Shown: positions 15,734 to 47,405, numbered from the stretch's first letter. The stretch: DNA of 64,000 nt from Escherichia coli (GCF_003334785.1 NZ_QOWV01000009.1); one strand, 5' to 3'. The notes: generated by a model not told the origin, from the letters alone. Program-made: numbers and translations.

Positions 15734-16804
15734 TTACTCCCCGACGCGCTCATTAATTGCCTGCGGATTGTACGTGATAAACATCGCATCACCGTAACTA
15801 AAAAAGCGATATTTCTCTTCTACCGCTGCTTTATAGGCGTTCATGGTGTGTTGATAACCGGCAAAGGCCGAAACCAGCATAATCAGCGTCGACTCTGGCA
15901 AGTGGAAGTTCGTCACCAGCGCATCGACCACTTTGTACTGGAAGCCCGGATAGATAAAGATTTGGGTATCGTCGAAGAACGGTTCAATGAGATCGTTTTT
16001 CGCTGCCTGAGCCGCGCTTTCCAGCGAACGTACTGAAGTGGTGCCAACCGCAATCACCCGGTTACCGCGCGCTTTCGCCGCCAGTACCGCGTCTACCACA
16101 TCCTGCGGTACTTCAGCGTATTCCGAGTGCATGATGTGATCTTCAATGGTGTCGACGCGCACCGGCTGGAAGGTGCCCGCACCAACGTGCAACGTCACAA
16201 ACGCCATCTCCACGCCTTTGGCGCGCAATTTTTCCAGCAAAGGCTCGTCAAAATGCAGACCTGCGGTCGGGGCTGCAACCGCGCCCGGTTTTTCGCTATA
16301 AACGGTTTGATAAAGTTCGCGGTCAGCGTCTTCGTCCGGACGGTCGATATACGGCGGCAGCGGCATATGGCCGATGCTGTTGAGAATATCCAGCACCGAG
16401 CGTTCATCATTAAATTCGACTTCAAACAGTGCGCCGTGGCGCGCGGTCATTGTTGCGTTAATACTTTCGTCATCGCCCAGCAGCAGTTCTGCGCCAGGTT
16501 TTGGCGCTTTCGAGGCGCGAATATGCGCAAGAATGCGTTTGTCGTCGAGCATCCGTTCAACCAGCACTTCAATCTTGCCGCCGCTGGCTTTACGCCCAAA
16601 CAGGCGCGCCGGGATCACGCGGGTATTATTAAAAACCAGAAGATCGCCGGGGTTGAGCTTATCAAGTAAATCGGTGAAAGTACCGTGCGTCAGCGCGCCC
16701 GTCGGCCCGTCCAGCGACAGTAAACGACAGCTACTGCGTTCAGGCATGGGATAGTGGGCAATCAGGGATTCGGGCAATTCAAAGGAGAAATCGGTAACGC
16801 GCAT
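15734..16804 (-). CDS. queA: S-adenosylmethionine:tRNA ribosyltransferase-isomerase
   Basis: 356-aa [36 protein letters not shown]... recognised as QueA. Confidence 0.96.
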
Positions 16805-16896
16805 GACACTGACTCAGACTAAAATAAGAGGCGGGTAGTCTAGTGCCGGGGCGCTCTCCCTGCAACCTTTACCCCCTTTTGGATAGAATATAATCG

Positions 16897-17478
16897 ATGA
16901 ATTTTTTAGCTCACCTGCATTTAGCCCATCTCGCGGAAAGCTCGCTTTCCGGCAATTTACTGGCTGATTTCGTACGCGGAAATCCTGAAGAAAGTTTTCC
17001 GCCCGACGTCGTGGCTGGCATTCATATGCATCGACGTATCGACGTATTGACTGACAATCTGCCGGAAGTCCGCGAAGCACGGGAGTGGTTTCGTAGTGAA
17101 ACGCGCCGCGTTGCGCCTATTACGCTGGATGTCATGTGGGATCACTTTCTTTCCCGCCACTGGTCGCAGCTGTCGCCGGACTTTCCGCTACAGGAATTTG
17201 TCTGTTATGCCCGCGAGCAAGTGATGACGATTTTGCCGGACTCACCGCCACGTTTTATCAATCTGAACAATTACTTGTGGTCAGAGCAGTGGCTGGTGCG
17301 CTATCGCGATATGGATTTCATCCAGAACGTGTTAAACGGCATGGCAAGCCGCCGCCCACGTCTGGATGCCCTGCGTGACTCCTGGTACGATTTAGACGCT
17401 CATTATGACGCCCTCGAAACCCGCTTCTGGCAGTTTTATCCGCGGATGATGGCGCAGGCGTCACGCAAGGCGTTATAA
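16897..17478 (+). CDS. acpH: Acyl carrier protein phosphodiesterase
   Basis: 193-aa [35 protein letters not shown]... recognised as AcpH. Confidence 0.92.
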
Positions 17479-17482
17479 AACG

Positions 17483-19297
17483 TTAGTTCATCCATACCGT
17501 AGCCGAAATGGCAGGCAAAGCCAGAATCCCGTCAGTCAGTTGCCCATGCCCTTCTTTGCATTGCCATTGCACGGCATTGAGAAACGGTGACGCGGGTAGC
17601 ACCACTTCACAGGCCTCGCCACGGTTGATTGCCACCAGTACACGTTGCTGATTCAGCACGCGGACAAATACCACCACGTTATCTTCCGCATACAGCACCT
17701 GACAGCCGCCATGACGTAGCGCCTGACTTTTCTTACGCAGCGCAATCATTCGCTGGTACAGCGCGAATAACGCCGTATCCTGCTTTTCCACCTGCCAGGG
17801 GAACGGTTTACGGCAAAACGGATCGTTTTTGCCATCCAGTCCTACTTCATCACCGTAATAAATGCACGGTACACCAGGCCAGGTGAACAGCCAGACCACC
17901 GCCAGCGGCAGGCGCGCAATATCCCGACCGAGCAGCGTTTTAAATCGCGCAGTATCGTGGCTGTCGAGCTGATTAAACATACGTAATTGTTGTTGATGAG
18001 AAAGCCCTGCGCGGTAATTATCCATCCAGGCCATACAGGTTTGGGCATCAATTTGCTGCGGATCGTAAGAGATATCGGTATTGGCAAGAAATCCCCACAA
18101 CGGGAATGTGAAGCCACGATAGTTCATGGCGGCATCTTCCACATCGGCCTGTAACCATTGCCGTGCATCGCCAAAATGTTCGCCGACAATATACGCTTCC
18201 GGCTGGGTTTCTTTCGCCGCTTCGGTGATCCCGGCAACGTGCTGCATATTATTGCGCGCCCCACCCGCCTCCCCCAGCATATGCACCACATCCAGCCGCC
18301 AGCCGTCCATATTCCACGGCGCTTTCAGCCAGTGGCGGACAATACTGTCTTCCCCGCGATAAATTTCATTCACCAGACTTTCCGACTGATAATCCAGCTT
18401 CGGCAAGCTGGCATAGCCAAGCCAGTCGAGCGCCGTGCCATCATCACTAAACGAGTACCAGTCGCGCCAGGGCGATTCGGGGTTGTGACAAGCACCACCC
18501 GTGCCACGATTATGCCTGTCAAACCAGGCATGGGAATCGCCACTGTGGTTAAACACGCCGTCCAGCACCAGCCGCATTCCCAGCTGCTGCGTATTGTGTC
18601 GCAAACGCAGCAACGCCCCATCACCGCCAAACTGCGGATCGACATGGCGATAATCCTCGGTATCGTATTTATGTACGCTGGGAGCTTTAAACACCGGATT
18701 GAGATACAGCGCTGTCACGCCAAGCTTTTTCAGATACGGCAGTTTTTCGCTTATCCCGTCCAGATCGCCGCCATAGAACGTTGATCCGCCCGCCTGCGCC
18801 GTGACCGGTTCATCCCAGTCACGCAAGATGATCTCTTGTCCGGCTGCATGATGGTAATAGACATGATCCTGTTCAGCTTCACGAGGAAGACTACGCGCAA
18901 AACGATCAGGGAAGATCTGATAAAAAATCTGATCCGCAGCCCATTGTGGGCCGATATCCGGTACATCGACGGCAAACTGCTCCAGTCGTGCCGGCGGCAT
19001 TCGGCTGAAGCCCTGCGGTGTAAACCAACGCTGGCGATCGTGCCACAGCAGTTTGAAACTGTAACGCCGCCGGGGTTGTCCGCTGGAGAGATCAATCGCC
19101 GCACGCCATGCGGTGACGCCAGGCTGCGGCTGACTGCGCTGCTTATGCATCGGTACTGACATTTCTTCGTTATCGTGTTCTGTACGCAGCATAATGCGCT
19201 GCGGTGGGTCTTCGCCCGTCAGCCACAGTGTAATGAGCAGTTGATCTTTGCTTTGTTTAACAAATGGGGGCACCGGCAGGTGCCATGCATTTAACAT
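17483..19297 (-). CDS. malZ: Maltodextrin glucosidase
   Basis: GH13 alpha-amylase-family ORF; track frame begins with two consecutive ATGs (MMLNAW...), the second taken as the start. Convergent with acpH with only 4 nt between stops. Confidence 0.92.
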
Positions 19298-19455
19298 CAT
19301 AATTCCCCTGTGATGAAAATCTGATCACCTTGCCATAGCCTAATGCAGGATCACTCATCATCTGAAGGATATTTGGGGGAGGAGGACGGGGGCGGATAAC
19401 TTTCGGAATAGCCGGATCAGGATTTCCTCCTGAACCGGCTTACAGAACGCAAGGA

Positions 19456-20829
19456 TTACTGGTTTTCAGCCAGCTGACGATCGTGGCGGCGTTTAAACAT
19501 CCAGCCAATCAACAGCACAACAATCCACGCGAAACCGACATACAGCGAGATACGCGTATCCGGGTGATAACCAATCAACCCGATAATAAAGAGCAGGAAA
19601 ATCAGCCCGCCGATGGTCGTTGCTACCCCACCCGGCACTTTAAATTTCAGCGCCTTAACTTCTTCTGGCGGCAAACGGCGACGGAAGGCAATTTGCGACA
19701 GCAGGATCATAATCCACACCCACACCGTGGCGAAGGTTGCCAGCGAAGCGATCACCAGGAAGACGTTTTCCGGCATGATGTAGTTCAGATACACCGCAAA
19801 CAGCAGCGCGGTAGTCATCACCAGCACCGTAACCCACGGAATACCGCGACGCGACGTTTTGCTGAAAATTTTCGGCGCGCTGCCCTGCTCTGCCATACCG
19901 TGGAGCATACGGCCTACGCCAAATACATCACTGTTAATTGCCGACAGCGAAGCAGTCAGCACAACAAAGTTAAGAATGCTGGCGGCAAAGGTAATGCCCA
20001 TATGCTGGAACGTCAGCACGAACGGGCTACCGGCAGTGCCAACCTGATTCCACGGGTAGATAGACATAATGACGAACAGCGTACCGACGTAGAACACCAG
20101 AATACGCATCGGCACGGAGTTAATCGCACGCGGTATCGATTTCTCAGGATCTTTCGCTTCACCGGCGGTAATCCCGATAATTTCGATCCCACCGTAAGCA
20201 AACATCACCATTTGCAACGACATTACCATGCCAAGCCAGCCGTTACTGAAGAAGCCGCCGTTGCTCCACAGGTTATGAATACCGGTCGGTTGCCCGCCGT
20301 TGCCAATCCCCCAGATGATGATGCCGAAACCGGCGACAATCATGATGATGATGGTGGCGACTTTAAAGAACGAGAACCAGAATTCCAGCTCACCGAATAC
20401 CTTCACGCTCATCAGGTTTACGGCGCAAATGATCAGCACCACGCTCAGTACCCAAATCCAGTGCGGCACCGTCGGGAACCAGACACCCATATAGATACCA
20501 AAAGCGGTCACATCGGCGATGGCGACAATAAGGATTTCAAAGCAGTAGGTCCAGCCGGTAATGTAACCTGCCAGCGGGCCGAGGTTTTCCTGCGCATAAC
20601 GCGAGAAAGAGCTGGCGGCCGGGTTATGTACCGACATTTCCCCCAGCGCACGCATAATGATATACGCCGCGATACCACCGATAATATAGGCCAACAACAC
20701 GCTCGGACCGGCCATTTTGATGGCGTCTGCCGAACCGTAAAACAGCCCGGTGCCAATTGCTGAACCCAGTGCCATAAAGCGTATGTGGCGGGTACTTAGC
20801 CCACGCTTTAGCTTGTTCTTACTTTCCAT
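19456..20829 (-). CDS. proY: Proline-specific permease (APC family)
   Basis: ORF-track frame 19456-20832 begins at a TTG; start placed at the ATG giving [34 protein letters not shown]... (457 aa). Confidence 0.92.
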
Positions 20830-45558: not shown

Positions 45559-46716
45559 TTGAAACGTAGTCTGCTTTTTTCTGCCGTGCTGTGTGCGGCG
45601 TCATTGACCTCCGTCCATGCGGCGCAGCCGATCACTGAACCGGAGTTTGCCTCTGATATTGTCGATCGTTATGCCGATCATATTTTTTACGGCAGCGGTG
45701 CCACGGGGATGGCTCTGGTTGTTATCGACGGTAACCAGCGCGTCTTTCGCAGTTATGGCGAAACGCGACCTGGTAATAACGTTCGCCCGCAGCTGGATTC
45801 GGTCGTGCGTATTGCTTCCCTCACCAAGCTAATGACCAGTGAGATGCTGGTGAAATTGCTCGACCAGGGGACCGTGAAGTTAAACGATCCGCTAAGTAAA
45901 TATGCTCCGCCAGGCGCACGCGTGCCAACCTACAATGGGACGCCCATTACGCTGGTCAATCTGGCAACCCATACCAGCGCCCTGCCCCGTGAACAGCCCG
46001 GTGGCGCGGCACATCGTCCGGTGTTTGTCTGGCCAACGCGCGAGCAACGCTGGAAATACCTTTCTACGGCGAAGCTGAAAGCCGCGCCAGGCAGTCAGGC
46101 GGCGTACTCTAACCTTGCGTTCGACCTGCTGGCAGATGCACTGGCGAATGCGTCCGGCAAGCCTTATACCCAGTTGTTTGAAGAGCAGATTACCCGTCCA
46201 TTGGGGATGAAAGACACCACCTACACCCCCTCACCGGATCAGTGCCGCCGTTTAATGGTTGCTGAGCGCGGTGCCAGTCCGTGCAATAACACGCTGGCGG
46301 CAATTGGCAGCGGCGGCGTCTATTCCACGCCTGGCGATATGATGCGCTGGATGCAGCAGTATTTGTCATCTGATTTTTATCAGCGCAGTAACCAGGCAGA
46401 TCGCATGCAGACGTTGATTTATCAGCGCGCGCAGTTTACGAAAGTGATTGGCATGGATGTCCCCGGCAAAGCGGATGCGCTTGGTTTAGGTTGGGTATAT
46501 ATGGCCCCGAAAGAGGGTCGTCCGGGGATTATTCAGAAGACAGGCGGTGGTGGCGGTTTCATTACCTATATGGCGATGATCCCGCAGAAGAATATTGGCG
46601 CGTTTGTGGTGGTCACTCGTTCGCCGTTGACGCGCTTTAAAAATATGAGCGATGGCATCAATGACCTGGTGACCGAGCTAAGCGGGAATAAACCGTTGGT
46701 TATCCCCGCGTCCTGA
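45559..46716 (+). CDS. ampH: Penicillin-binding protein AmpH (class C beta-lactamase-like)
   Basis: 385-aa ORF beginning at a TTG; signal peptide and SxxK active-site motif (IASLTK). Confidence 0.9.
   Translation: MKRSLLFSAVLCAASLTSVHAAQPITEPEFASDIVDRYADHIFYGSGATGMALVVIDGNQRVFRSYGETRPGNNVRPQLDSVVRIASLTKLMTSEMLVKLLDQGTVKLNDPLSKYAPPGARVPTYNGTPITLVNLATHTSALPREQPGGAAHRPVFVWPTREQRWKYLSTAKLKAAPGSQAAYSNLAFDLLADALANASGKPYTQLFEEQITRPLGMKDTTYTPSPDQCRRLMVAERGASPCNNTLAAIGSGGVYSTPGDMMRWMQQYLSSDFYQRSNQADRMQTLIYQRAQFTKVIGMDVPGKADALGLGWVYMAPKEGRPGIIQKTGGGGGFITYMAMIPQKNIGAFVVVTRSPLTRFKNMSDGINDLVTELSGNKPLVIPAS

Positions 46717-47405
<689 letters not shown>

Follow-up and report, generated by a model that had tools for sequence, protein, structure and literature searches.

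Antisense and untranslated transcription is reportedly suppressed by Rho together with NusG, as Peters et al. are said to have described in 2012. For convergent neighbors in Escherichia coli, overlap between transcripts has been recorded repeatedly: of the 370 convergent operons in the study of Conway et al. (2014; PMC4161252), 276 overlap, with a mean of 286 nt, and the ExcludonFinder study (Nucleic Acids Res 2025, PMC12288877) lists 165 convergent excludons in MG1655, a term used there for pairs with an overlap of RNA-seq-defined transcript boundaries in half or more of 58 transcriptomes. The excludon calls of the latter study come from a coverage-threshold algorithm, and its validation by p19 dsRNA did not work for convergent pairs. 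SEnd-seq has described bidirectional termination together with collision of RNA polymerases (RNAP) at convergent pairs, and collision sites that are heterogeneous if a stem-loop element is missing (bioRxiv 10.1101/2022.10.23.513370).

Here we analyze the junction between acpH and malZ in a stretch of 64,000 nucleotides from E. coli (GCF_003334785.1 NZ_QOWV01000009.1), which we call the window and whose positions are counted from its first letter. A sequence-only reading of this DNA had noted that the stop codons of the two convergent genes are separated by only 4 bp, with no room for a terminator on either strand, so that each transcript must extend antisense into the other gene, and had predicted transcriptional interference or antisense pairing between a gene of lipid metabolism and a gene of the maltose regulon. 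In our judgment there is a good probability that this is an ordinary convergent junction without a terminator, which arose by a deletion in the ancestor of Escherichia, and that its overlap, which is already reported, would be limited by Rho/NusG and perhaps by polymerase collision and is a tolerated by-product of the arrangement.

The acpH/malZ junction and its reported overlap

The elements of the junction are the following:

16897–17478, plus strand: acpH, coding for ACP phosphodiesterase (193 aa), with a TAA stop at 17476–17478, according to the ORF list, NCBIfam and RefSeq
17479–17482, no strand: the spacer AACG, 4 bp between the two TAA stops
17483–19300, minus strand: malZ, coding for maltodextrin glucosidase (605 aa), with a TAA stop that reads TTA at 17483–17485

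Read directly, positions 17470–17490 of the window are GCG TTA TAA / AACG / TTA GTT CAT, and acpH and malZ are the only long ORFs at the junction in the ORF list. The product of acpH is matched end to end by the NCBIfam equivalog NF007466 (432 bits, residues 1–193 of 193), and that of malZ is matched over its full length by NF008051 (1132 bits). The same 4-bp gap is found in the RefSeq annotation of strain 300709, ATCC 11775, S103EC and K-12 MG1655; in the RefSeq record of MG1655, malZ (b0403) ends at 424332 and acpH (b0404) at 424337, and 161 of 161 positions across the junction agree between the window and MG1655. The sequence, the ORFs, NCBIfam and RefSeq thus agree on the gene names, the coordinates and the gap given by the sequence-only reading, all of which were correct. 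The two genes are neighbors on opposite strands with their 3' ends facing each other, which is the convergent geometry of an excludon.

In the MG1655 record malZ measures 1815 nt, with one codon fewer at its 5' end than in the PGAP annotation of other strains (1818 nt); this difference, at 19298–19300 of the window, is one of start-codon annotation only. The locus of ATCC 11775 has about 126 bases more between queA and acpH (506–723 of that locus) than the equivalent region of the window (16805–16896), and our guess is that the extra bases are a REP-type element. This size difference had been considered as an insertion at the junction, and was rejected as such because it maps between queA and acpH.

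To put the 4-bp gap in perspective, convergent pairs were counted in four annotated stretches, about 196 kb in total, from a single E. coli genome; in the 2.6 kb around the junction that were queried, this genome matches the window at 100% identity. The 32 pairs in this sample have a median gap of 54 bp, and seven of them (22%, 95% CI 9–40%) have a gap of 4 bp or less or overlap: iprA/ampH and modC/ybhA (0 bp each), mltF/tadA and yfiM/kgtP (-4 bp each), nadB/trmN (-16 bp), ybhQ/ybhR (-39 bp) and malZ/acpH itself (4 bp). The first of these pairs lies in the same window and is tighter than acpH/malZ, with ampH (plus strand) ending at 46716 and iprA (minus strand) beginning at 46717; it is absent from the published excludon list (PMC12288877, Table 1). 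The number of convergent pairs in E. coli is put at 704 in a recent preprint, and scaling up from 7 of 32 pairs in our small sample we extrapolate to some 100–150 junctions as tight as this one, or more. The 4-bp gap between acpH and malZ is unexceptional in E. coli.

The overlap of the two transcripts has been published. Table 1 of the ExcludonFinder study (PMC12288877) includes malZ-acpH among the MG1655 convergent excludons, together with modC-ybhA, ybhQ-ybhR, mltF-tadA, nadB-yfiC/trmN and yfiM-kgtP. For malZ-acpH this study reports overlap of coverage alone, and neither mutually exclusive expression nor processing by RNase III nor a phenotype. It was also the only paper in which our full-text literature search found both gene names together; searches for yajB with malZ, or for either gene with Rho, returned nothing relevant, and the supplements of Adams 2021 (PMC7815308) have no entry for acpH or malZ. 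The overlap of the acpH and malZ transcripts is therefore already documented, and its prediction is correct but not new.

The presence of the pair in a list for which half or more of 58 RNA-seq samples must show the overlap (PMC12288877) would also fit a functional excludon, in which MalT-driven transcription of malZ lowers the expression of acpH, or the reverse, through collision or through cleavage of the RNA duplex by RNase III. Such an excludon would couple the use of maltodextrins to the turnover of the ACP prosthetic group, but the literature search revealed no functional link between malZ and acpH. Deletion of acpH, as Thomas and Cronan are said to have found in 2005, has no growth phenotype, which we also count against this explanation. 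Its likelihood depends further on the history of the junction, which is described below.

Transcript 3' ends and candidate modes of termination

The statement that the junction offers no room for a terminator holds: 4 bp are too short, and we detected no intrinsic terminator for about 700–900 nt downstream on either strand. A consensus terminator scan of positions 16500–19600 was negative to a distance of about 600 nt from the junction; over the whole region it returned three sites, which equals the shuffled expectation (3.1). There are no inverted repeats between 17380 and 17600. When hairpins of -6 kcal/mol or better that abut a T-rich octamer were sought over 800–900 nt in each direction, only loose multi-branched folds were obtained, and no compact GC stem abutting a U-run; weak hairpins with 4–6 T in the next 8 nt occur e.g. 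near 17781 and 17727. As a positive control, a hairpin with a T-run is plain by eye in the corresponding loci of Salmonella, Leclercia and Citrobacter. The 3' extension of acpH (17440–17640, plus strand) folds no more stably than shuffled sequences (z = +1.6). The 3' extension of malZ (17520–17320, minus strand) has a predicted energy of -78.9 kcal/mol (z = -3.2), which none of 200 shuffles reached, and forms two long hairpins, neither of which is followed by a U-run. On the basis of the consensus scan, the inverted-repeat search, the folds and the hairpin and U-tract scan we rejected an intrinsic or bidirectional terminator near the junction. A known RNA family or a 3'-UTR sRNA at the junction was likewise rejected, as Rfam gave 0 matches at E<=1 for either strand of 16500–19500.

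Since neither strand carries an intrinsic terminator, RNA polymerase must enter the partner gene in antisense orientation in both directions. Extension of each transcript into its partner, as claimed by the sequence-only reading, is thus forced by the terminator-less 4-bp gap, and the resulting overlap is the one listed for MG1655 (PMC12288877). The RNA segments concerned are the following:

17479–17908, plus strand: 3' extension of acpH, obligatory, untranslated and antisense to the 3' end of malZ, as characterized by composition, folds and scans
17320–17471, minus strand: the first approximately 160 nt of the 3' extension of malZ, antisense to the 3' end of acpH, structured and without a U-tract
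17249–17365, minus strand: the first stretch of the malZ extension in which C exceeds G (C/G 1.1–1.5), inside antisense acpH; a weak candidate for a Rho entry region

An explanation that would retain defined 3' ends is that each transcript stops at an intrinsic or bidirectional terminator embedded in the coding sequence of its partner. TransTermHP predicts overlapping terminators for 146 of the 165 convergent excludons of E. coli (PMC12288877), and the unusual stability of the malZ extension (z = -3.2) as well as the weak hairpins near 17781 and 17727 could be taken in the same sense. However, the consensus scan was negative within about 600 nt and overall did not exceed the shuffled expectation, the hairpin and U-tract scan yielded only loose multi-branched folds, the stable hairpins at 17320–17471 lack a U-tract, and synonymous sites at the 3' end of malZ are not conserved. 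We therefore regard embedded terminators as unlikely.

The base composition of the acpH extension would be compatible with factor-dependent termination. In this extension, C exceeds G in every 78-nt window over about 430 nt (C/G 1.05–2.0), with a peak at 17635–17764 (35–36% C, 18–23% G), which makes it a plausible candidate for a Rho loading (rut-like) region. The first 180 nt of the malZ extension show no C bias (C/G 0.7–1.0), and this RNA, being also structured, would be the poorer Rho substrate. A high C content is, however, a general property of strands antisense to G-rich coding regions, and composition alone is no proof of a rut site.

We infer that beyond the stop codon, where the ribosome has been released, the antisense RNA of either gene is untranslated and would most likely be ended by Rho/NusG. 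The acpH RNA would be terminated within a few hundred nucleotides, at heterogeneous positions in the C-rich, unstructured antisense-malZ RNA; termination of the malZ RNA would occur later and less efficiently, in structured antisense-acpH RNA that lacks a C bias. Whenever both genes are active, head-on collisions of polymerases may add to termination. It is conceivable that some malZ transcripts read through much of acpH, even toward the co-oriented queA.

In its strongest form, such read-through would create an operon in which the malZ RNA crosses antisense acpH (582 nt) into queA-tgt-yajC-secDF, i.e. a non-contiguous operon with acpH embedded in it. Only acpH intervenes between malZ and queA, which share a strand, the antisense-acpH RNA is expected to serve Rho poorly in view of its structure and lack of C bias, and there is no terminator on the minus strand from 17482 to 16800. 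On the other hand, about 700 nt of untranslated antisense RNA normally provide ample opportunity for Rho. Moreover, ExcludonFinder lists only three non-contiguous operons for MG1655 (PMC12288877), and malZ-acpH-queA is none of them. We consider an operon of this kind quite improbable, and prefer termination by Rho/NusG, possibly aided by collision, within the partner genes.

Origin and variation of the junction in Escherichia

To trace the junction beyond E. coli we retrieved the acpH locus of 80 species and determined the position of malZ in every one. The 4-bp gap was found in Escherichia loci only. Its sequence is AACG or GACG in E. coli, GGCT in Escherichia sp. MOD1-EC7003, and GGTA in E. 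albertii and Escherichia sp. E1V33, so that in the sampled Escherichia the length of the spacer is fixed and all four of its bases vary. In 63 of the 76 other species of Enterobacteriaceae, acpH is followed by a highly conserved gene of 200 aa on the same strand, identified as peroxiredoxin C (NF011576, 473 bits), of which the window has no homolog. The order acpH–peroxiredoxin–malZ occurs in Salmonella, Leclercia and some Citrobacter and Enterobacter. In all six loci of this order that were read for a terminator, a hairpin and a T-run come after the peroxiredoxin gene (in Salmonella AAAGGCTCGCGATAGCGAGCCTTTTTT), and in loci where the peroxiredoxin gene is the single insert the stops of acpH and malZ are about 785–1120 bp apart. 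Escherichia has kept AcpH at full length, and its MalZ is one residue shorter than in the other genera examined, ending in ...VWMN* as compared with ...VWMNC* in Salmonella; the missing residue (window 17483–17488) is consistent with a deletion breakpoint inside the last codon of malZ.

Tight junctions have also arisen in further lineages without a peroxiredoxin gene at this place, with a spacing of 10 bp in Pseudenterobacter and a 4-bp overlap in Siccibacter. In Leclercia sp. UBA7405, again without this gene, the junction is 38 bp long and holds a perfect GC hairpin. A 4-bp junction conserved throughout the enterobacteria was accordingly rejected in favor of Escherichia plus a few independent compact cases. 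Repeats were noticed in two loci: in Superficieibacter the space before malZ (4583–4940 of its locus) consists of about three tandem copies of a unit of approximately 115 bp, and in "Escherichia sp." ESNIH1 about three tandem copies of such a unit lie downstream of the peroxiredoxin gene and before malZ (5262–5557 of its locus). These units contain REP-like GC-rich palindromes (GCCCGGTGGCGCTGCGCTTACCGGGCCTACG...).

The ancestral order indicated by these comparisons is acpH, the peroxiredoxin C gene and a hairpin/T-run terminator, with malZ converging on it from the other side. A parsimonious reading is that one deletion in the ancestor of Escherichia began directly behind the acpH stop and ended within the last codon of malZ; it would have removed the peroxiredoxin gene, the sole terminator and that codon, and left the two stops 4 bp apart. 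As judged from the compared sequences, the junction would most parsimoniously be a lineage-specific deletion scar in Escherichia. Such an origin argues against selection for the overlap.

The junction is also polymorphic within E. coli. Of 5426 complete genomes, 4295 match a 200-bp probe spanning it without interruption, and in 1128 (21%), including O157:H7 and O55:H7, an island of 1.66 kb separates acpH from malZ. The empty site in the window is the junction itself (17479–17482), and in a carrier locus the island occupies positions 1180–2842. It has a G+C content of 37.5%, as against 53–55% in the flanks, and encodes on the malZ strand an ORF of 485 aa that includes a region of 12-nt (4-aa) tandem repeats. 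The 485-aa protein has no match in NCBIfam, Pfam, PADLOC, PHROGs or the PDB sequences, and its cluster is composed only of E. coli entries annotated as "hypothetical protein". The island also contributes a 20-nt inverted repeat, located about 35–80 nt beyond the malZ stop. Its ends showed neither terminal repeats nor a target-site duplication. The copies of the island are 90–99% identical to each other and more diverse than the flanking core genes, and in carriers acpH ends in CTC TGA, not TTA TAA. The island in 21% of genomes indicates that direct abutment of acpH and malZ is dispensable within E. coli.

Positions 17381–17580 show 90–95% identity to the window in 2086 E. coli genomes, while for the surrounding 2.6 kb this is the case in just 11. 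Part of the 2086 are island carriers that match half of the probe; strains in which the region is contiguous, such as S103EC, are also only 92.9% identical. From these identities, diversity seems to be raised locally beside the insertion/deletion site.

We also looked for constraint on the overlapped coding ends, using third codon positions in five Escherichia sequences. Variability in malZ codons 571–600 is 0.63, the highest value in the gene, compared with a mean of 0.40. In acpH, where the mean is 0.33, codons 121–180 have values of 0.20–0.30; this slight decrease, in only five sequences, is unconvincing, though it may reflect weak constraint there. Third positions in these sequences gave no sign of a conserved RNA element in the overlapped ends, and selective constraint on them was rejected, there being no dip at the 3' end of malZ and a slight one in acpH.

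These observations bear on the functional excludon introduced above. In its favor, the 4-bp spacing is kept in all sampled Escherichia species, and excludon pairs as a class show higher synteny (PMC12288877). However, acpH and malZ adjoin each other only in Escherichia and in a few lineages independent of it; in most relatives the peroxiredoxin gene lies between the two, with a terminator as well where malZ comes next; the 1.66-kb island parts the genes in about a fifth of E. coli genomes; and the bases of the spacer and nearby synonymous sites vary freely. Together with the results of the literature search, this makes regulation of one gene by transcription of the other very unlikely. A more specific variant, that the deletion itself created a link peculiar to this lineage, in which malZ induced by maltose and MalT silences acpH and shifts the balance of holo- and apo-ACP during growth on maltodextrins, appears to us hardly credible. 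If it were true, strains with the island, such as O157:H7, would be natural "uncoupled" variants.

The junction is probably a neutral scar, and its overlap would be a side effect that is tolerated, not a regulatory coupling under selection. Regarding the sequence-only reading, the antisense overlap that it deduced stands, being both forced and published. The regulatory link that it implied between the maltose regulon and ACP metabolism does not: overlap at such junctions is normal, the junction looks like a deletion scar, 21% of genomes carry an island in it, and no constraint was seen. This link is disfavored by the evolutionary evidence and is unsupported.

Significance and comparison with known systems

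The acpH/malZ junction matters little in itself, as it is one of many pairs with hardly any spacer and has already been catalogued. It does call for caution, because the overlap can here be traced to the loss of a peroxiredoxin gene and a terminator, and overlap alone is consequently no evidence of selected regulation. The variants of this locus could serve as natural controls for convergent interference: E. coli with the 4-bp gap, E. coli with the 1.66-kb island, and Salmonella with the ancestral gene and terminator.

Like the convergent excludons described earlier (PMC12288877, PMC4161252), acpH and malZ are neighbors on opposite strands with overlapping 3' ends, and this exact pair has been catalogued; it differs from convergent excludons in general in that its architecture is traceable to what we take to be a lineage-specific deletion. 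With the bidirectional terminators revealed by SEnd-seq (bioRxiv 10.1101/2022.10.23.513370) it shares the situation that convergent transcripts must stop in a common region, to which collision could contribute. In those elements, however, the intergenic overlap encodes a stem-loop at which RNAP pauses and which sets the site of collision, whereas here the spacer has 4 bp and no such stem-loop. The acpH extension resembles the targets of antisense suppression by Rho/NusG in being untranslated, C-rich, G-poor and located downstream of a stop codon; the malZ extension differs from them by its structure and lack of C bias, and the role of Rho at this junction is a prediction. A further counterpart is the Salmonella-type arrangement of acpH, peroxiredoxin C gene, terminator and malZ, which has the same flanking genes in the same orientation: there, the peroxiredoxin gene and the terminator keep the two convergent ends apart, whereas Escherichia, without both, has them facing each other across 4 bp.
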